From positions 5,056,001 to 5,120,000 of the forward strand of contig OZ244587.1 of assembly GCA_965218095.1 (NCBI GenBank): 64,000 nucleotides of DNA. Reading direction: 5' to 3'. The DNA comes from Candidatus Poribacteria bacterium (lineage in GTDB: Bacteria > Poribacteria > WGA-4E > PCPOR2b). Made by a program: the position numbers and the translations under genes. Shown here in pieces: positions 362-43,677 of the stretch (position 1 is the stretch's first letter; each line of letters starts with the position of its first letter). A model generated the notes under the pieces. It was not told where the DNA came from. It was given only the letters and a program-made list of their open reading frames with translations, and searched no databases.

Positions 362-2116
362 ATGTCGCTAGTCAGATTAGATCGTGTCACAAAATTGTAT
401 GAACCTGATCTCATTCTCGATGAGGTCTCTCTGTCGATTGAACATGGTGACCGTATTGGGTTGATCGGGGTGAACGGGTGTGGCAAAACGACGCTGGTTG
501 CGATTATCGCTGGCTTAATCAAGGATTTCAAAGGCAGCATTGTGTACGCCAGAAGATTACGAATTGGCTATCTTAGTCAAGAACCAGATTTAGGAGCCGA
601 TTGCACACTACGTCAGGAAATGCTCAAGGTTTTTCAAAATCGACGCAACCTTGAGGATGAGATGCTGCTTCTCAGTGAGAGAATGGAAACGGCAGCGGAT
701 AATCTGACGCTTCTGAATGCGTATGCTCGGCTGCAAGAGCGGTACGAGCAGATGGGCGGCTACGATTACGAGCATCAAATCAATCGAACACTGAGCGGAT
801 TAGGATTTCGCGATGTAGATTTTAATTTGAAGATTGGCGTGTTAAGCGGAGGCCAGAAAAGCCGTGCTGCGCTTGCAAAATTGTTGCTTGGGGATGCGGA
901 TCTGTTGCTGCTTGACGAACCCACCAACCATCTGGATATCAAAGCGATTGAGTGGTTGGAGAATTTTCTGAATACGGAGTATCAAGGGGCAGTTATCATC
1001 ATCTCCCACGACCGCTACTTTTTGGATCGCGTTATCCGGAAAATCGTGGAATTGCAGAATCACAGGCTCAAAGAATATCGTGGAAACTACACGAAGTATC
1101 TTGAAACCAAACAAATCGAGTTGCTGACACAGGAACGCGAATATAAAAAGCAGCAGCGGTTCATCGCACACGAGGAGGATTTTATCCGTCGCAACATTGC
1201 CGGACAACGCACACGAGAAGCACAAGGGCGACGGAAGTTGCTCGACCGGCTTGAACGAATCGAAAAACCTCAAACCGTTGAAAAAACAATCAAACTCCAC
1301 TTCACACCGGATGTGCGAGGCGGAAACGACATTTTGCAGTGCCAGAATTTGGAGAGGCGGTATGGCGATAAGCAGATCTTTGAAGGCTTGAATTTTGAGA
1401 TCTACCGTCAAGATATCGTCGGTATCATTGGGGCCAATGGGGTTGGCAAGACGACGTTGTTCCGAATGATTCTCGGAGATGAGCAGCCGACTTCCGGTGA
1501 GTTGAAAATTGGTCAGAATCTCCACTTTGGGTATTATGACCAGGAACTTGCTGGGCTTAACCGCGATAACACAATTATCGATGAAATTTGGAGGTTGCGC
1601 CCGCAACAGACACAGGGCGAGATTCGCAGTTTTCTCGGACGGTTCCTGTTTTCCGATGATAAGGTATTCAAAGTGATTGACGACCTCAGCGGTGGTGAAC
1701 AGAGCCGGGTTATGCTCGCCAAATTGCTCCTGGAAAATGCGAACGTTCTCCTGCTCGATGAGCCAACCAACCATCTGGACATTCCGTCGCGTGAAGTCTT
1801 TGAGGAGGCATTGGCAGAGTATCCGGCAACCATTATGATGATTTCCCACGATCGCTACCTTCTGAACAAGCTTGCTACCAAACTATTGGTCTTTGAGAAT
1901 CGCACGGCAAAACTATTCGTCGGAACTTATGCTGAATACGAAGCCCACGTTCAAGCACAAAAACGACGAGCGATGCAAGAAAAAGAGGCAGATGAGCAGG
2001 CGAAGAAGTTAGAGCGGCAAGAAAAGCAGAAGGGGGAAAGGTTGCGAGTTGCTTCGACTTCAAAGCAGTCGAAGAAAAAGCGGCGGATAAAGGCACAGCG
2101 GGTGGCTAATGTGTGA
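362..2116 (+). CDS. ABC-F family ATP-binding protein (ribosome-associated ATPase)
   Basis: Two ABC domains (GVNGCGKTT/LSGGQ/LLLDEPTNHLD and GANGVGKTT/LSGGE/LLLDEPTNHLD), helical linker, no TM segments; GAGG RBS. Confidence 0.93.
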   Translation: MSLVRLDRVTKLYEPDLILDEVSLSIEHGDRIGLIGVNGCGKTTLVAIIAGLIKDFKGSIVYARRLRIGYLSQEPDLGADCTLRQEMLKVFQNRRNLEDEMLLLSERMETAADNLTLLNAYARLQERYEQMGGYDYEHQINRTLSGLGFRDVDFNLKIGVLSGGQKSRAALAKLLLGDADLLLLDEPTNHLDIKAIEWLENFLNTEYQGAVIIISHDRYFLDRVIRKIVELQNHRLKEYRGNYTKYLETKQIELLTQEREYKKQQRFIAHEEDFIRRNIAGQRTREAQGRRKLLDRLERIEKPQTVEKTIKLHFTPDVRGGNDILQCQNLERRYGDKQIFEGLNFEIYRQDIVGIIGANGVGKTTLFRMILGDEQPTSGELKIGQNLHFGYYDQELAGLNRDNTIIDEIWRLRPQQTQGEIRSFLGRFLFSDDKVFKVIDDLSGGEQSRVMLAKLLLENANVLLLDEPTNHLDIPSREVFEEALAEYPATIMMISHDRYLLNKLATKLLVFENRTAKLFVGTYAEYEAHVQAQKRRAMQEKEADEQAKKLERQEKQKGERLRVASTSKQSKKKRRIKAQRVANV

Positions 2117-2137
2117 TTGGTATCAAAAAAATACGCG

Positions 2138-2383
2138 TCATCCGTACTTCTCCATACGATGTTCGTCAAGCCACTGTTGAACTTCTGCGTCGGACGGTAC
2201 TGACTGGCTTGCCGCCAGGAGGCCTAGAGCTTTTTCCAAGGTATTGCGTTTAGATTGGGAATTTTCCACTTCTGGTACAAGTGTTTTTAGGACATCTTGC
2301 ACGAGTGAAAAGTGGCTGGCAGGCGGCCAGTTGCGAACAATTTCGATAACCGCTTCGTAGCTAGTTGGTTCAGCGGTTTGCAT
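2138..2383 (-). CDS. Small hypothetical protein, putative antitoxin of a decayed PIN-type TA pair
   Basis: 81 aa MQTAEPTSYEAV...WLDEHRMEKYG with AAGGGGG RBS; its TGA overlaps an ATG starting a PIN-like MTRIF(F/L)DTN remnant. Confidence 0.55.
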   Translation of the reverse strand: MQTAEPTSYEAVIEIVRNWPPASHFSLVQDVLKTLVPEVENSQSKRNTLEKALGLLAASQSVPSDAEVQQWLDEHRMEKYG

Positions 2384-2506
2384 AGTTCTTTCCCCCTTCA
2401 GTTGGTTGGATATAAAAGTGACTACTACTATACCATTTTGACTCATGAATCATCAATATCAAGATCCAACTGGAAACCCTTCTAGAATAATAAGGAGATC
2501 GTAGCG

Positions 2507-3550
2507 TTGACATCAAAATTATCGTACAGAGATCTTCATAAAGAAGCCCTCGTCATTGACTCCCACAACGATGCAGTTGTCGGCCACATCCGTCGAGGGA
2601 ATATCAGTATTTCGGGTCGCGAGACGCCCGACCACATGCGACATGATGGGACGGTCGCTCAGTTGCGCGGGCAGTTGGACGCGGCGAGACGGGAGGTTAA
2701 AGTCCAGATTAATCTGCCGAAGATGCGTCAGGGCGGAGTTGACGCCGCGTTTTTCGCAGTTGATGTGACGAGCGCGTGGCAGAATCACCTTTCCTACGCT
2801 TTAGATGCCATCGGCTTTTTTGAGGCGGAAGTCGAGACGCATGCCGACGAAATCATCATTGCCAAAACGGCAGAGGATATTCAGCAGGCAAAAGCGGAAG
2901 GCAAACTTGCCGCGATCCTGGTCATCGAGAATAGCGATGGAGTGGAGCGAAGCCTGAATATTCTGCGGGCGCTTCACCATCTGGGTGTCCGATCCATTGG
3001 ACTGACCCACGACCCAACCTCATGGGCGGCGGCTGGCAACGCTGAGACAAATAGCGGCGGTGGGTTGACGCGATTTGGTGTGCAACTGCTTAAAGAGATG
3101 AATCGGCTGGGGATGCTTGTCGATGTCTCCCATATCAGTGAACGGGGATTTTGGGATGTGCTTGAAACTGCGGAACGCCCGGTCATCGCCTCTCACAGCA
3201 ACTGTAAGGCGCTCTGTGGTCATTCACGGAATCTGACCGACGAACAGATTAAAGGCGTTGCCGAAAACGGCGGCGTCATCGGTGCAACATTTGTACGCTG
3301 GTTCATTGACGAAAATGCGCCCACATTTTCCCGTTATCTGAATCATATCGATCATATCGTCGATCTGGTCGGCGATGATCATGTTGGCATCGGATCCGAT
3401 TTCGATGGCGGCGGCGACATACTCAAGGATGCGACGGAATTTCCTAAGATTACTGAGGGGCTGTTGGAGCGGGGCTATTCGGCGGAGGCAGTCAGGAAGA
3501 TTCTTGGGGAGAATCATCTGCGTGTGTTTGCGAAGGCTTGTCAAGGATGA
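2507..3550 (+). CDS. Membrane dipeptidase (peptidase M19) family
   Basis: IDSHND, LVDVSHIS, IASHSN and HVGIGSDFDGG motifs; AAGGAG RBS. Confidence 0.92.
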   Translation: MTSKLSYRDLHKEALVIDSHNDAVVGHIRRGNISISGRETPDHMRHDGTVAQLRGQLDAARREVKVQINLPKMRQGGVDAAFFAVDVTSAWQNHLSYALDAIGFFEAEVETHADEIIIAKTAEDIQQAKAEGKLAAILVIENSDGVERSLNILRALHHLGVRSIGLTHDPTSWAAAGNAETNSGGGLTRFGVQLLKEMNRLGMLVDVSHISERGFWDVLETAERPVIASHSNCKALCGHSRNLTDEQIKGVAENGGVIGATFVRWFIDENAPTFSRYLNHIDHIVDLVGDDHVGIGSDFDGGGDILKDATEFPKITEGLLERGYSAEAVRKILGENHLRVFAKACQG

Positions 3551-9004: not shown

Positions 9005-9081
9005 CAGTTCATATTTCACTAGCTCTATAGATTGCAGCCTCACATAAACTCAAGATCTCTCAACACAACGGGTGGAGCGTA

Positions 9082-9399
9082 ATGATCTACGAATACAGTG
9101 GTTACCTTTGTTTCAGACCATCACCCGATCAAAAGTTGCGAAAGGCTGAGGAACTTGCAGGTAAATTTGGATTAGAGATTGATCCCGGGGCCAACTACAT
9201 CGAATTTGAATATTCTGGGAGAGATAGGAATCGTAAAATTGTACAACTCCTTTTCCAGATGGCTGAGATCATCGGTGACGCCGAAAGAGAAATTGTTTGC
9301 ACTATAGATAGGGAAGGCGCCGATCCCGTCTTCGAGTTCTACTCGATAAGGCATGGCAAGTTGCATCGACAAAAGGGGCGAATATTTAGAGGGTATTGA
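9082..9399 (+). CDS. Hypothetical protein
   Basis: 105-aa ORF with GGAG RBS; no recognised motif. Confidence 0.6.
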   Translation: MIYEYSGYLCFRPSPDQKLRKAEELAGKFGLEIDPGANYIEFEYSGRDRNRKIVQLLFQMAEIIGDAEREIVCTIDREGADPVFEFYSIRHGKLHRQKGRIFRGY

Positions 9400-39302: not shown

Positions 39303-39619
39303 AACAAATTTTTTGAGCCGCAATGAAAGGGGGTGAAACAGAAAAGTTGGAAGGAGCGCTGGGAAGAAAATAGATCGAAGAAAAAATATGCTTGAACTTT
39401 TCTCTGGCGTGGAATATACTTTGACTTTGTCACATTTGGGTGACTGAATAATACTTCCGAAATGTGGCCGATGACCGAAGTCATCCTAGGCTGTGTTATG
39501 CTTGGAGGTCTCACCTGCCTCTTTGCGAATAAATTAGCACGGAGACGTCGTGTTATAATCAGTAGTTGGGAAAAGTGAGATTCAATCCAATTTGTAAAAC
39601 GCGCCTAATAGATTAAGGC

Positions 39620-39648
39620 TTGAAAAAACTTTGTAAATCAGGTATAAT
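39620..39648 (+). promoter_or_regulatory. Transposase promoter starting in the left IR
   Basis: TTGAAA-17 nt-TATAAT, then AAGGAG RBS. Confidence 0.7.
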
Positions 39649-39684
39649 AATAGCGTCAAACCCTGATGAATAAAGGAGTTAATC

Positions 39685-40567
39685 ATGAATCTGTTCAACA
39701 TAATGGAGCATTTTTCAACCCACGAAAGTTGCATTGAGCATCTCGAAACTATTCGCTGGGGTGAACAACCAGAGTGCCCCCATTGTGAGAGTGAAAAGGT
39801 TGCTCGCAAGCGTGAAGGTGATAAAATTGGACGTTGGAATTGTCATCTTTGCAAGTCTAGTTTCAATGTTTTATCCGGCACCCTGTTTCAAGGGACGAAA
39901 ATCTCCCTAACGAAATGGTTCGTTGGAATCGCTTTAATGGCAAACGCGAAAAAGAGTCTCTCCAGTTGTCAACTTGCTCGACATTTAGGCTTGAATCAAA
40001 TGTCTGCATGGTACATGATGCAGCGGATAAGGCAGGAAATGAATCGAAAAGGGGAAACCTTGCTCAAGGGCATAATTGAGATCGATGAGACCTACGTCGG
40101 CGGCAAGCCGCGCAGACGGAAAGACAAGGACGGAAACCTACCTCCGCCGAGCAAGCGAGGCAGAGGAACGAAGAAAACGCCCGTAATTGGTGCTGTTGAA
40201 CGGGCTGGGAATGTTGTAGCGCGTGTAGCTACGAGCCTAACTCGTAAGGGCGTTTTGGGGTTCATCAAAGGCATTATCGAGAAGCCCAAAGATTCAGTGC
40301 TGATGACAGAATGAGTTCTCGTCATACGAAGCCGTTGATGGTATGATGCCCCACCATGTCATCAAACACAAGAAATGGCAGTATGTGGACGGTGAGACAC
40401 ACACAAACACGATTGAAGGGTTCTGGTTACTGGTGAAACGTGCTTTTCATGGGACACATCACCACTACAAGCATGTCTCGCTCTACATCGCTGAGGCGTG
40501 TTATAAGTACAACAATCGGAAGAACCGAAACATCTTCAAGAAGTTTATCAGGGAGTGTTTTGTATAA
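39685..40567 (+). pseudogene. IS1595-family transposase with an apparent 1-nt insertion near 40310
   Basis: Zn ribbon CPHC..CHLC, GTLFQGTKI.L.KWF, EIDETYVGG, KRGRGTKK; removing one A restores LMTDEFSSY...HTNTIEGFW...Y.AE..YKYN. Confidence 0.9.
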
Positions 40568-40779
40568 TGGACTGGACACAAACTATCACTATTGTTGCTT
40601 CCATCTTAGCTGCTAGCGGATTAGTTGTCACGGTCGTATTATCAATGGGCAAGCGAATTGATGATATGGGTAAGCGAATTGATGATGTCATGTTGCAACT
40701 TTCTGAACTACGACAAGCAATCCTGAATCTCCTTCCGCCTTACCCATCAGGGGCTGATGACGATGATGATGATGAGTAA
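40567..40779 (+). CDS. Passenger: 70-aa protein with N-terminal TM helix, coiled coil and acidic tail
   Basis: TAATG overlap with the transposase stop; MGKRIDD repeated twice. Confidence 0.65.
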   Translation: MDWTQTITIVASILAASGLVVTVVLSMGKRIDDMGKRIDDVMLQLSELRQAILNLLPPYPSGADDDDDDE

Positions 40780-40792
40780 GGAGGTATAAGGT

Positions 40793-41044
40793 TTGTTTAT
40801 CAGCAATGTTGACTGTGATGATTTTTGTGATGTTGACATCATTGTCCGTCTACAGAAAAAGCGGGATAGAGATGGAACATTTTCTGTTCATGCTTATTTA
40901 AAGGATAACTCTTGGGAGTCCATTATCCTTTTGTCTGGCGCCTCTGAGGACAAAGCAAAGGATTTAATTCATCGTGTCGGGGAATTAAAAGACAGAAAAG
41001 GCGCTGGCTCTGACCGGGTTATCTACTATCCTGCCAAATCCTGA
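40793..41044 (+). CDS. Passenger: 83-aa hypothetical protein 'orfA', copy 1
   Basis: GGAGG RBS, TTG start; duplicated at 42044-42295 with mostly silent changes. Confidence 0.72.
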   Translation: MFISNVDCDDFCDVDIIVRLQKKRDRDGTFSVHAYLKDNSWESIILLSGASEDKAKDLIHRVGELKDRKGAGSDRVIYYPAKS

Positions 41045-41148
41045 CAGAAAACATTTTGACTATATTGGCATGGCATGACATAATAGATAGGCGATAGCGA
41101 TTTTTACTCAAACACGGTTCATACGAATCGTCTAAAGGAGGAATCACA

Positions 41149-42030
41149 ATGAAACGCCTATTTGTTGTTGCTATACTGCTTGTATCGCTGGGATTACCAT
41201 GTTCCGCGTTCTCGGAATTAACACACTCGGATATTGAGAAGGTTCGAGAAGTGATCAAGTCTGAAAACGCGATAATCCAGTCGGAAATGACGGCACTTAA
41301 ACTTCGGCTTGTCCAAAAGATTCAGGAGTCCGAAAACCGGCTACAGTCTGAGTTGAATACTCAATTAAGTGCTCGAATGAATGATTTCACGCTTATTTTC
41401 GGCATCACTGCTGGGGGCTTTTTCTTGCTATTTGCAACGCTTATAGTAGCCAATGCTTTGAAGGGGCGCGTAAATAAGAGGTTGACAGTATTTCTGATCG
41501 CAGCCTTATGTTGCACTTTGTTCAGCCATTCTCAACTCATAGCCGTTGATAAGACTACAGTTTTTGATGAGATTGAGTGTACAAAGCTAACAGTTTTTGA
41601 TAAGACAGGGAAAACAGCAATTCGCTTATACGCTACTGAATCAGAGAATCATGTTCTTATCCATGGCAAAGCGAAAGAATCGGGAATCCAATTATCCGCT
41701 TCTCAATCGAGGAATGATATAATTGTCCACGGCAAAGAAAAATCAGGGGTAAGTTTATCTGCCACTGAATTAGGGAGTGGTTTGGCTGTCTTTGATGAAG
41801 TGAGGAAAAGGGCAATTCAAATACTCGGCACTGAATCAGAGAATTTTGTGGCTGTTTACGATAAAATGGGGAAAGTGGCATCTCAATTAACTGCCGATGA
41901 ATCAGGGAATGGTGTAATTGTCCATGATAAGACAGAGGGCACGGCAGCGGTTTTCTTATCTTCCCTTGAATCGAATAATGGTATAGTTGTCATGGATAAG
42001 ACAGGAAACGTAACGTGGCGGGCACCTTAG
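41149..42030 (+). CDS. Passenger: exported/membrane protein with coiled coil, 2 TM and ~22-aa beta repeats
   Basis: Own promoter (TTGACT...CATAAT, ~41056-41084) and AAGGAGG RBS; repeats such as LTVFDKTGKTAIRLYATESENH / VAVYDKMGKVASQLTADESGNG. Confidence 0.8.
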   Translation: MKRLFVVAILLVSLGLPCSAFSELTHSDIEKVREVIKSENAIIQSEMTALKLRLVQKIQESENRLQSELNTQLSARMNDFTLIFGITAGGFFLLFATLIVANALKGRVNKRLTVFLIAALCCTLFSHSQLIAVDKTTVFDEIECTKLTVFDKTGKTAIRLYATESENHVLIHGKAKESGIQLSASQSRNDIIVHGKEKSGVSLSATELGSGLAVFDEVRKRAIQILGTESENFVAVYDKMGKVASQLTADESGNGVIVHDKTEGTAAVFLSSLESNNGIVVMDKTGNVTWRAP

Positions 42031-42043
42031 GGAGGTATAAGGT

Positions 42044-42295
42044 TTGTTTATCAGCAATGTTGATGATGATGATTTTTGTGATGTTGACATCATTGTCCGT
42101 CTACAGAAAAAGCGGGATAGAGATGGAACATTTTCTGTTCATGCTTACTTAAAGGATAACTCTTGGGAGTCCATTATCCTTTTGTCTGATGCCTCTGAGG
42201 ATGAAGCAAGGGATTTAATTCATCGTGTTGGGGAATTAAAAGACAGAAAAGGTGCTGGCTCTGACCGGGTTATCTACTATCCTGCCAAGTCTTGA
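42044..42295 (+). CDS. Passenger: 83-aa hypothetical protein 'orfA', copy 2
   Basis: 267-bp direct repeat 42031-42297 vs 40780-41046, about 13 mismatches by eye, 4 aa changes. Confidence 0.72.
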   Translation: MFISNVDDDDFCDVDIIVRLQKKRDRDGTFSVHAYLKDNSWESIILLSDASEDEARDLIHRVGELKDRKGAGSDRVIYYPAKS

Positions 42296-42332
42296 CATAT
42301 TTGAGAAGTTTATCAGGGAATGCTTTGTATAA
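42295..42332 (+). repeat. Second copy of the transposase 3' end (38 bp)
   Basis: ACATATTTGAGAAGTTTATCAGGGAATGCTTTGTATAA vs 40530-40567 ACATCTTCAAGAAGTTTATCAGGGAGTGTTTTGTATAA. Confidence 0.85.
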
Positions 42333-42601
42333 GCACCCCCTGAGTGCCTAAGCATTATTGCTTAGGAAATGTGACAGGTGACAATGAAGCGGCACCTTGT
42401 CCCATTCCCGGCTTATGCCGGTTTGCAATACGCTGAAACGTTGCAGCGTGTTGCTTTTCAGCTTTAGTGGGATAAAGCAACTGTCTTACCATTGCTTTAA
42501 CACCATCGTTGCTGTTTGAACAACGCATGAGGACTCACCTCCTTTCTGTGTTGTGACGTGAGAGGGTGTCCGGTGGTTAGACCGGGCACCCTACTTCTTT
42601 T
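42333..42601 (+). ncRNA. Candidate structured RNA ending in an intrinsic terminator
   Basis: Run of hairpins (CCTAAGCA/TGCTTAGG, CCGGC/GCCGG, GCAATACGCTG/CAGCGTGTTGC, TAAAGCAA/TTGCTTTA, AGGGTGTCCGGT/ACCGGGCACCCT + U-tract); G-U pairs favour the + strand. Confidence 0.4.
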
Positions 42602-42803
42602 ACTTGTTAGATTTTGTTCTAAAATGATTGATAATTCCATACCCAATCAACCAGATTACCAAAAACATACCAGAAGCAACAAGGTAAAGTGGCCATACAG
42701 GCATATTCACGATTGCCCCAATTAACCATGTAACAACTACAATTGATCGCATCCATGGTTTGTTATAGAACAGAAGCAGGATTGAAGCGGCTAAGAATAT
42801 CAT
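42600..42803 (-). CDS. Passenger: 67-aa very hydrophobic small protein
   Basis: AAAGGA RBS; MIFLAASILLLFY...basic C-terminus RTKSNK. Confidence 0.55.
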   Translation of the reverse strand: MIFLAASILLLFYNKPWMRSIVVVTWLIGAIVNMPVWPLYLVASGMFLVIWLIGYGIINHFRTKSNK

Positions 42804-43071
42804 CTTGGGGTGTTCCTTTCTGTAGTGAGTGAAAGTTAAAACAAGCCTAAAGTTTATAACCGCGTAATGGTATATCTCTCTTCGATGAAAAGGGACAGAC
42901 AGGGGTTGCCTTATATACTTATGGAAGAAATGGTATGTATATCTGCGATAAAACAGGAGAGGCGATATGGGATGCGCCTTGATGAATGGCTTACTGTACT
43001 TGATATAGGAGGTGATTATCATAGCAACTCAAGAACTTACTCAAGAAGAAAGAGAAGAGAAACATCAAGAA

Positions 43072-43413
43072 TTAGTCGAGATAGCGGAGGCTTCTAAACT
43101 CGTCCTCAAGCGAACTCGCCAATTCCTTGATGGCATCAATCCGCATATCAGAAGTTTTGGCGAGTTCATTCATCCCCCCATTGATAAGGGCATGTCCGTC
43201 TAATACTTGCTTATAGCCCCACGCAATCATAGCAATTCCCTTGTTATAGGTTGCTAATGGATGCTGTGGATCAAAGCGGAGTGCCGCGTCAAAATCGGCA
43301 ATACCTTCTTTATAGTCGTGTTTATGGCATTTGTCAACGCCATTATTGGTAATGAGATTTGCATTTGTCCTGGCAGTATTAACGCGCTTGTAGTCGGGCA
43401 GTTGGTAGTTCAT
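43072..43413 (-). CDS. Passenger: small TPR-repeat protein
   Basis: NNG...DYKEGIADFDAALRFDPQHPLATYNKGIA TPR; AAGGAGG RBS; inward promoter TTGACA...TGATATATT in the right IR. Confidence 0.72.
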   Translation of the reverse strand: MNYQLPDYKRVNTARTNANLITNNGVDKCHKHDYKEGIADFDAALRFDPQHPLATYNKGIAMIAWGYKQVLDGHALINGGMNELAKTSDMRIDAIKELASSLEDEFRSLRYLD

Positions 43414-43677
43414 AATAATCCTCCTTTGGTGAGGGTTGAAATTAAAGTCTGCTACTATTAATAATTAGCGGACTGTACACCCTTAATATATCATACAAAA
43501 AGGCGAATTGTCAAGCCTTAATCTATTAAATGCGTTTGTAAAATAAGGTCAGACAGTGTTCAAAACTCCAAACAGTGAGACTCCTAGAATCTTCCATCAC
43601 AGGTTGCTCTGAATCCTCGACGCTTCGTCGGGATGCAATCAGGGAAGGATTCCGGGAATCTCAGGGAATACCGCACC

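Follow-up and report, generated by a model that had tools for sequence, protein, structure and literature searches.

Evidence for a recurrent cargo site at the transposase 3′ end in a Poribacteria subgroup of IS1595-family transporter elements

Introduction

How does an insertion sequence (IS) come to hold the end of its own transposase gene twice, with passenger genes lying between the two copies? The question is raised by ISa, an IS1595-family element at positions 39600-43534 of a 64-kb window (the whole stretch analyzed, 64,000 nucleotides of GenBank contig OZ244587.1, positions 5,056,001 to 5,120,000, to which bare coordinates refer). ISa is present as a single copy in the 6.35-Mb genome of the sponge-symbiont Candidatus Poribacteria bacterium from which the window derives (G000; G, C, and L numbers denote genomes, contigs, and loci) and belongs to a subgroup seen only in Poribacteria, whose transposases end in ..FIRECFV*. 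The acquisition of passenger genes by transporter IS is poorly understood. IS1595 transporter IS with passenger genes are already recognized as a kind in a passage of PMC3129680 (citing Siguier et al. 2009).

An initial annotation of the locus proposed that cargo is added in [gene + orfA] units at a fixed site in the transposase 3′ end, in the manner of an integron. The analysis reported here supports a recurrent cargo site at that position and offers a tentative account of the duplicated gene end that accompanies it.

Results

The transposase gene end is duplicated and overlaps a palindrome

ISa is a defective, non-autonomous, mosaic transporter IS of the IS1595 family with an ISXO2-like transposase, and is considered non-autonomous and defective because the transposase reading frame is broken. 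The features on which the question turns are the following.

39685-40567, plus strand: IS1595-family transposase gene with a 1-base frameshift near 40308-40312; open reading frames (ORFs) at 39685-40314 and 40343-40567
40530-40567, plus strand: transposase 3′ end, copy 1; 40547-40567 are the left arm and loop of palindrome hpA, a half site without the right arm
42295-42332, plus strand: transposase 3′ end, copy 2, a non-coding remnant
42313-42343: palindrome hpA, with left arm and loop from copy 2 and right arm at 42333-42343
42347-42366: hairpin hp2, directly after hpA; the stem sequence differs in relatives (ISb, G088, and G011) while the hairpin is kept

The two 38-nt gene ends are 87% identical, their 5 mismatches comprising 4 synonymous changes and 1 K>E substitution, as in the duplication originally described (38 bp, 5 mismatches, 4 of them silent). 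One extra base splits the transposase gene, and the break was located by comparison with the intact 293-aa gene of a sister element, ISb. The same frameshift was present in an RNA-library contig from a sample of another study (X9, 40243-40381, 0 differences). PF12762 (DDE_Tnp_IS1595) matched both halves (E values, 2e-12 over profile positions 2-82 and 9e-12 over 96-153), and PF12760 (Zn_ribbon_IS1595) matched the N terminus (E value, 4.9e-9).

The final 21 nt of the transposase gene form the left arm and loop of hpA, with the stop codon in the loop, and in copy 2 these 21 nt pair with the 11 nt that follow. The layout reads as 12-8-12 (or 14-6-14), consisting of a 12-nt left arm in the I-R-E-C codons, an 8-nt loop over F-V-stop, and a 12-nt right arm. 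Folding at hpA/hp2 gave z scores of −5.4 on the plus strand and −6.8 on the minus strand, and no hairpin folds at copy 1 (z score, +1.4). Across an alignment of 10 sites from 8 genomes, 84% of the cells were paired, compared with 37 to 46% for slid controls; covariation in this alignment did not rise above shuffles, the sites showing too little variation. A perfect hpA stem of different sequence was read by eye in copy 1 of both G024:C71 and G011, the latter with a changed peptide end as well, and these kept stems indicate that the structure of hpA is conserved rather than its sequence. With ISb as outgroup, the hairpin part of copy 1 had changed at synonymous sites only (GAG TGT in ISa and a CGA codon in G022a and G022b are examples of such drift), and that of copy 2 was kept, its changes lying upstream of the hairpin part. 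The hpA pattern found 0 matches among viral contigs.

The same footprint recurs with unrelated cargo

ISb is 2,211 bp long and encodes an intact 293-aa transposase. Its nine copies (L240:101-2311, equivalent to G000 contig C1:3216657-3218867, and eight further places) are 99.9 to 100% identical, which points to a recent burst, and 8 of the nine are flanked by AT-rich target duplications of 8 bp. The transposase region shares 78% DNA identity with that of ISa. After the stop codon ISb has 320 bp of unrelated DNA, made up of a minus-strand 64-aa ORF and a second palindrome, hpB; a 21-nt second gene end follows, which is exactly the left arm and loop, and then the right arm and hp2.

The distance from copy 1 to copy 2 is 1765 nt in ISa (38-nt duplicate), 341 nt in ISb (21-nt duplicate), and 407 nt in G022a (duplicate of about 47 nt, with 2 loop mismatches). 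G017 has a distance of 375 nt, a degenerate duplicate, and an enlarged loop. Cargo begins at the first base past the stop codon in all four of these filled transposase-bearing elements, and the inserts of ISb, G022a, and G017 had no significant mutual similarity. The initial annotation was therefore right that cargo lies at one place after the transposase stop, differs among relatives, and ends in a second gene-end copy. The empty versions that it predicted also exist, in G021 (a minimal IS of about 1.1 kb) and G088 (complete, 1.69 kb), where the gene runs straight from its stop codon into the right arm, the sequence that follows the second copy in filled elements. G088 has the architecture of ISb with unrelated cargo, and G022b lacks both the right arm and a second copy.

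In a tree built from the N-terminal 208 transposase residues, filled ISb falls beside empty G088, and filled G022a beside hairpin-less G022b. This interleaving implies at least three or four separate cargo events. The footprint thus recurs with unrelated cargo in at least four transposase-bearing lineages interleaved with empty relatives, which supports a cargo site used repeatedly at the transposase 3′ end.

Second copies were also found beside transposase remnants or with no transposase nearby. G024:C71 and G011 each contain two full hairpins about 0.9 to 1.1 kb apart; in both, copy 2 derives from a transposase lineage other than that of the resident remnant, and a full hairpin is retained by copy 1 itself. 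G018 contains a tandem array of three paralogous lipoprotein-like genes (227 to 251 aa; L113 reverse, about 700-3250), each followed by a transposase 3′-end copy and hpB, with the full hairpin after the last only. This array is set among WD40-repeat genes, and no transposase is nearby. A truncated sister locus of ISa was identified at contig position 2552369-2553745, where 12 codons are left of a decayed orfA. Truncated remnants, 5′ as well as 3′, are common. Nested IS insertion was rejected as an origin of the arrangement, given that no inner inverted repeat (IR) adjoins copy 2 in ISa, ISb, or G022a; in G017, 12 nt matching the IR core stand immediately before copy 2, which is a lead only.

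Two further observations were made in G021. A long array of roughly 300- to 400-bp tandem repeats comes right after the minimal element (L021, about 1600-3300). A derivative resembling a miniature inverted-repeat transposable element (L034:3394-3569) joins some 78 nt from the left end of the minimal IS to some 103 nt from its right part; it lies in inverted orientation 3.3 kb upstream of a full copy.

Control elements and the wider clade

Second copies were searched for with the last 24 nt of the gene, allowing ≤5 mismatches and 5 to 6.5 kb downstream. None was found in 72 metagenome IS1595 elements, a scan that serves as a control only, as its closest element was 58% identical and it returned no close relative from within the subgroup. 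Of 60 distinct gene ends (genome contigs plus three additions), only those of ISa, ISb, and G022a had a second copy; the 53 ends outside the subgroup had none.

In a wider clade, the transposase stop codon overlaps (ATGA) the start of a passenger gene that begins MNRLYYGDCL, a start resembling that of a DNA methyltransferase. Such loci (L045, L046, L047, L065, L077, L085, L094, L102, L105, L107, and others; L153, L157, and L160-L165) were found in metagenome-assembled genomes of several phyla, many with sponge-associated names. Since the stop is overlapped by this methyltransferase-like gene in many outsiders, coupling of a passenger to the transposase stop appears to be common in the wider clade.

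Bounds and assembly of ISa

39591-39599: left target-site duplication, TTTGTAAAA (flank sequence; joint in a run X5 contig)
39600-39626, plus strand: left terminal IR, containing the −35 of an inward promoter-like site (inverted-repeat search)
39620-39648: inward promoter-like site at the left end, TTGAAA-17-TATAAT
43514-43485, minus strand: inward promoter-like site at the right end
43508-43534, minus strand: right terminal IR (inverted-repeat search)
43535-43543: right target-site duplication, TTTGTAAAA (flank sequence)

The bounds proposed for the element proved real. The terminal IRs (39590-39626 and 43508-43544, 27 to 37 nt each) are 81% complementary, and TTTGTAAAA occurs in both flanks. 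Terminal IRs with a target duplication of 8 bp are a feature of the IS1595 family, and the duplications measured 8 to 9 bp in ISa and in 8 of the nine ISb copies. Inward promoter-like sites are present at both ends. A Logan contig from run X5, of another sample, joins 39590 to 43535, with 9 letters that fit both sides, and looks like the empty target site of ISa; its shorter side is just 21 letters.

Copy-specific joints were checked in Logan contigs from runs of three studies. Contigs covered 40538-40809, 40780-41037, 41008-42060, and 42259-43633, and none of those listed covers the whole element end to end. ISa shows no sign of assembly chimerism, because copy-specific contigs from three studies span each junction. 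Other contig joints (40565 to 42801, 40567 to 43503, and 39680 to 42307) had short sides of 22 to 37 letters and intervening unknown letters, could come from relatives, and were not used as evidence. No weight was given to stretches of ISa that lack RNA-library contigs in X9. Rfam gave nothing credible in ISa and nothing in five related loci.

Cargo between the two gene ends

40567-40779, plus strand: 70-aa ORF, its start codon (ATG) overlapping the TAA of the transposase gene; the product combines an N-terminal membrane helix with a coiled coil
40777-41046, plus strand: repeat D1, copy 1, with a ribosome-binding site and orfA1 (40793-41044)
41056-41084: promoter-like site upstream of the 293-aa gene
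41149-42030, plus strand: gene for a 293-aa protein; signal peptide, two hydrophobic stretches, and 22-aa repeats, about six in number (66-nt period)
42028-42297, plus strand: repeat D1, copy 2, with a ribosome-binding site and orfA2 (42044-42295)

The 70-aa and 293-aa genes are present as first annotated, and the two orfA repeats stand as well (270 nt, 95% identical, with an 83-aa ORF in each). Between orfA1 and orfA2, 7 synonymous and 6 non-synonymous changes were counted, a pattern consistent with purifying selection. A homologue of the 70-aa protein (62% identical) is encoded in G018, with a decayed transposase-end-like stretch upstream, and the 293-aa repeat protein has paralogues elsewhere in the genome. 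A run X5 contig with a side of 51 letters skips 92 nt (41902-41995) within the 22-aa repeat region and may represent a repeat-number variant between samples. The six cargo proteins scanned matched nothing in PHROGs or PADLOC and nothing above the Pfam cut-off.

A full HMMER search of 1.84 billion representatives returned 5 distant small-protein homologues of orfA; a word-indexed search returned the self-match only, and the Atlas held no named cluster. In genomes, relatives were found as two tandem copies in G018 and one paralogue in the genome of ISa. The start MFIxD is shared by all 5 library homologues and by one of the two G018 copies, itself almost the same sequence as one of these homologues. 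The two orfA-like genes of G018 come after a membrane coiled-coil gene of the 70-aa type, with no hpA nearby. A PH-like fold is a sandwich of seven beta strands closed off by a helix at the C terminus. A structure model of orfA (pLDDT 80) comprises a small beta sandwich and a C-terminal helix. In a wide structure search with this model, all 50 top rows were PH, PTB, or FERM-F3 domains at Z scores of 5.1 to 6.5, below the trust level of the tool, and Foldseek gave no match at an E value of ≤0.001. orfA therefore appears to be a small, possibly PH-like accessory gene, duplicated inside the cargo and normally found behind a membrane coiled-coil gene, and it gives no hint of being a recombination protein.

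These findings bear on the modular part of the initial annotation. It held orfA to be a constant component of each module, which fails because no other element has orfA linked to the junction: transposase-3′-end junctions with orfA occur in ISa and as a decayed remnant in the truncated sister locus, and the homologues in G018 and elsewhere in the genome of ISa lie at sites without a junction. Its view of the two [gene + orfA] units as separately motif-bounded was likewise lost, there being no motif-bounded site between them, and the units are not cassettes. The core GTTTATCAG does occur four times in ISa (5 times in the window, against 0.41 expected) but is not a special core; the four copies reduce to two independent sites, one doubled by each repeat. 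Its presence at the orfA start is explained by the codons for F-I-(S/R) of the shared N terminus MFIxD, and the likeness of this start to ..FIRE.. of the transposase end may be coincidence. ACATTTTGA is present at 41051-41059, but its reading as a degenerate junction requires an indel and an offset and was not distinguishable from chance. What had escaped notice were the transposase frameshift, the stop-codon palindrome, and an internal right-end repeat at 42842-42864.

An 8-mer upstream of the 293-aa gene that resembles the left IR (41079-41093) was rejected, about 1 to 2 chance matches being expected by estimate.

The right-hand part of ISa is a mosaic

42355-42528, minus strand: 57-aa ORF, cargo; 85% identical copy in the truncated sister locus
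42563-42592: palindrome hpB (GTGTCCGG..CCGGGCAC), then a T-rich tail on the plus strand
42600-42803, minus strand: ORF for a small two-helix membrane protein
42842-42864, minus strand: internal right-end IR of ISb type; 20 of 23 positions match the ISb left end (3 mismatches)
43072-43413, minus strand: 113-aa ORF, weak match to TPR; a homologue in G007 with 70% identity is not part of an IS

ISa is a mosaic that holds an internal right end of another lineage. From the position of this end, 42295-42864 looks like the right part of an ISb-type element whose transposase has been cut to its last 38 nt, and 42865-43534 is a further piece, ending in a repeat that matches the left end of ISa itself. 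The only parts common to ISa and ISb are the transposase region, about 56 nt at hpA and hp2, and a stretch of about 57 nt close to the right end. Together with the unrelated cargo of G088, this patchwork indicates that cargo on both sides of the hairpin joint is exchanged among family members.

Eleven of the 13 genome matches to hpB are in ISa, ISb, or the sister locus. The palindrome (GTGTCCGG, loop, CCGGACAC) was seen at cargo gene boundaries in ISa, ISb (L240, about 1350-1378), the sister locus, G018, and G024 (L113 and L028). A separate long stem (TTATGG.GGCAGC ... CTGCCATAAG) encloses 60 to 130 nt near the right ends of three related elements (L024, reverse, about 2940-3030; L025, about 1360-1560; L036, about 9010-9120), and Rfam had no match to it.

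Searches for a recombinase

As first annotated, no recombinase is visible in the element: ORF lists and Pfam identified no tyrosine recombinase between the IRs of ISa, and none was found in the elements of its relatives. For the integron integrase profile TIGR02249, all matches in the genome were below the cut-off. Integron-integrase-like fragments were noted at G000 C1:1536854-1537808, 2745024-2745251, and 1055430-1055824, the best scoring 216 bits with 7 in-frame stops; they look like integron relics in the Poribacteria genome. Among 176 Poribacteria genomes, no second backbone was found to carry the ISa cargo or the ISb insert.

A family of Xer-like tyrosine recombinases with 44 to 51% mutual identity was identified. 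One member (L028:1340-2239, plus strand) abuts the right end of the G024:C71 remnant and is a lead only. Paralogues in the genome of ISa (G000 C1:1165346-1166317, 3072921-3073904, and 5390074-5390844) lie in other islands with no hpA nearby. One of the Xer-like genes in this genome lies in a low-GC island, beside a gene paralogous to that of the 293-aa repeat protein. A homologue in G021 was rejected as IS cargo, as it is outside the 1.1-kb minimal IS, about 4 kb beyond it.

Discussion

How cargo may enter at the hairpin joint

The duplicated transposase 3′ end can be accounted for by the overlap of gene end and palindrome: because the two overlap, an insert would survive only with the overlap present twice, copy 1 finishing the reading frame and copy 2 completing hpA. 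The order in the subgroup is transposase, hpA, hp2, and then minus-strand cargo, predicted to be driven from the right end. Family members and transposase-less derivatives could recombine at or close to the hairpin joint, through illegitimate or short-homology joining that the palindrome might aid, and so bring in cargo; selection would then retain only those products in which both the gene end and the palindrome are intact. Dedicated capture machinery would not be involved. Following duplication, copy 1 would drift at synonymous sites freed from pairing, and copy 2 would keep its pairing part and decay upstream; that decay alone could shorten the recognizable duplication towards 21 nt.

From the sequence comparisons, this combination of recombination at or close to the hairpin, between family members and their truncated derivatives, with subsequent selection is given a probability of roughly 45%. 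This reading is favored because the length of the duplication varies, the G022a loop differs, some second copies are of other lineages, ISa contains an internal end, and neither a recombinase nor a shared cassette was found.

Several regularities weigh against it. All seven second copies counted (ISa, ISb, G022a, G018, G011, G024:C71, and the sister locus) keep about 21 to 53 nt of an 880-nt gene, which random breakpoints explain poorly; such breakpoints also leave unexplained why the cargo start is fixed right after the stop codon in four of four filled elements. The exact match of ISb copy 2 to left arm plus loop is a further difficulty. In G011 and G024:C71 the two copies come from separate lineages, so that selection against long direct repeats does not account for how short the remnants are there. 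Among non-coding second copies, loop variation is concentrated at sites equivalent to third codon positions, suggesting that these copies have repeatedly been re-derived from coding ends. None of the proposed recombination intermediates was seen. The regularities listed here fit a directed process better.

Such a process could be site-specific cassette capture, a doubtful alternative in which hpA would be the attachment site for a recombinase acting in trans, for example an Xer-like enzyme. Modules would enter at the boundary between loop and right arm, each bringing a replacement left arm, so that the IS would contain an integron-like or dif-module-like platform. Tyrosine recombinase core sites have a layout like the 12-8-12 of hpA. 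The fixed left junction at the stop codon (four of four filled transposase-bearing elements) suits this alternative, as do the short direct repeats that flank each insert like att sites and the repeat mismatches of ISa and ISb, which fall in the arm and leave the spacer intact. G024:C71 and G011 can be read as site-cargo-site arrays with two full palindromes and G018 as an array of three gene units each ending in the motif; however, the three G018 units are paralogues, as tandem duplication would yield, and copy 1 is without a right arm in four of six arrays. An Xer-like gene abuts the G024:C71 remnant, and three paralogues occur in the genome of ISa, but no recombinase was found in the elements, those paralogues lie in other islands away from any hpA, and the G021 homologue is about 4 kb beyond its 1.1-kb minimal IS. 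The duplicated length also varies from 21 to about 50 nt, the G022a spacer differs, and no cassette occurs in two backbones. An integron-like mechanism, as first proposed, is therefore unproven, since no recombinase was found in the elements, the genome has only broken integron-integrase fragments, the palindrome is not of attC type, the duplication ranges from 21 to about 50 nt, and no cassette is shared by two backbones. That a trans-acting recombinase both captures and exchanges modules at hpA, making the IS1595 subgroup a self-mobile cassette platform with the transposase 3′ end as a portable half-site, is unlikely.

Template switching at the palindrome, the other directed alternative, is improbable. 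Replication or repair would stall at hpA, the nascent strand would copy foreign DNA, and synthesis would resume upstream of the stall, leaving an insert and a variable short duplication. This would match a strong palindrome with one junction fixed at the hairpin and the other variable, and would require no recombinase. However, no microhomology was identified at the junctions read, and neither the second copies of different lineage nor the internal right end is explained.

That two strain variants were merged in assembly, or that the structure is a one-off local duplication, is most improbable. ISa is single-copy in its genome and short-read contigs end within the 270-nt repeat, but every junction is covered by copy-specific contigs from three studies, and the same footprint occurs with other cargo in other genomes.

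The whole subgroup has one preferred entry point with a structural landmark and a recognizable footprint, making the question testable in sponge-symbiont metagenomes. If driven by a recombinase, cargo entry would be a new coupling of cassette capture to transposition; if not, it would be a clear example of overlapping functions forcing duplications as mobile elements grow. The duplicated-end footprint is in either case a practical marker for cargo boundaries in IS annotation.

Comparison with known systems

ISa resembles integrons, dif modules, and islands at tRNA gene ends in single features and was not seen to have the defining features of any. Like integron cassettes, its cargo consists of small, mostly promoterless genes of unknown function that gather at one site beside a fixed gene, with a hairpin-forming site at the distal end. 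An attC site has an inverse core ...AAC and a core GTT..., and one site follows each cassette. hpA, in contrast, is without the AAC...GTT layout of this definition, its arms beginning ..TTTATC and ending GATAAA.., and there is one full hairpin per array rather than per gene, with none between the two gene pairs of ISa. IntI is not encoded in the element, the genome having broken fragments only, and 21 to 50 nt are duplicated in the subgroup, as against a 7-nt core.

Some integrative elements insert into a tRNA or tmRNA gene at its 3′ end, restore the gene end, and are flanked by a short direct repeat. In the ISa subgroup, too, a short direct repeat flanks the insert and regenerates the 3′ end of the interrupted gene. 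Those elements have their own integrase and are kilobases long, whereas the smallest insert in the ISa subgroup is 320 bp and encodes no recombinase.

The sites that bound dif modules are full Xer sites of 11-6-11 layout, alternate in orientation, and have arms that match the host dif site. Sites in the ISa subgroup are direct, one usually being a half site (copy 1 in ISa, ISb, G022a, and G017), and hpA is 12-8-12 (or 14-6-14). Discrete accessory modules of Acinetobacter plasmids are reported to be bounded by short imperfect palindromes, with movement attributed to host Xer recombinases (PMC13141974, PMC6449649, and PMC7399989). The likeness to ISa lies in palindrome-bounded accessory modules with no recombinase inside.

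No description of a stop-codon palindrome, or of repeated cargo entry there with a duplicated gene end, was found in the open-access literature. The closest likeness in build is to other IS1595 transporter IS, with which ISa shares a DDE transposase with an N-terminal zinc ribbon, terminal IRs, an 8-bp target duplication, and passengers downstream of the transposase; the ISa subgroup appears to differ from them in the palindrome over its stop codon and in the repeated gain of cargo there with a duplicated gene end.

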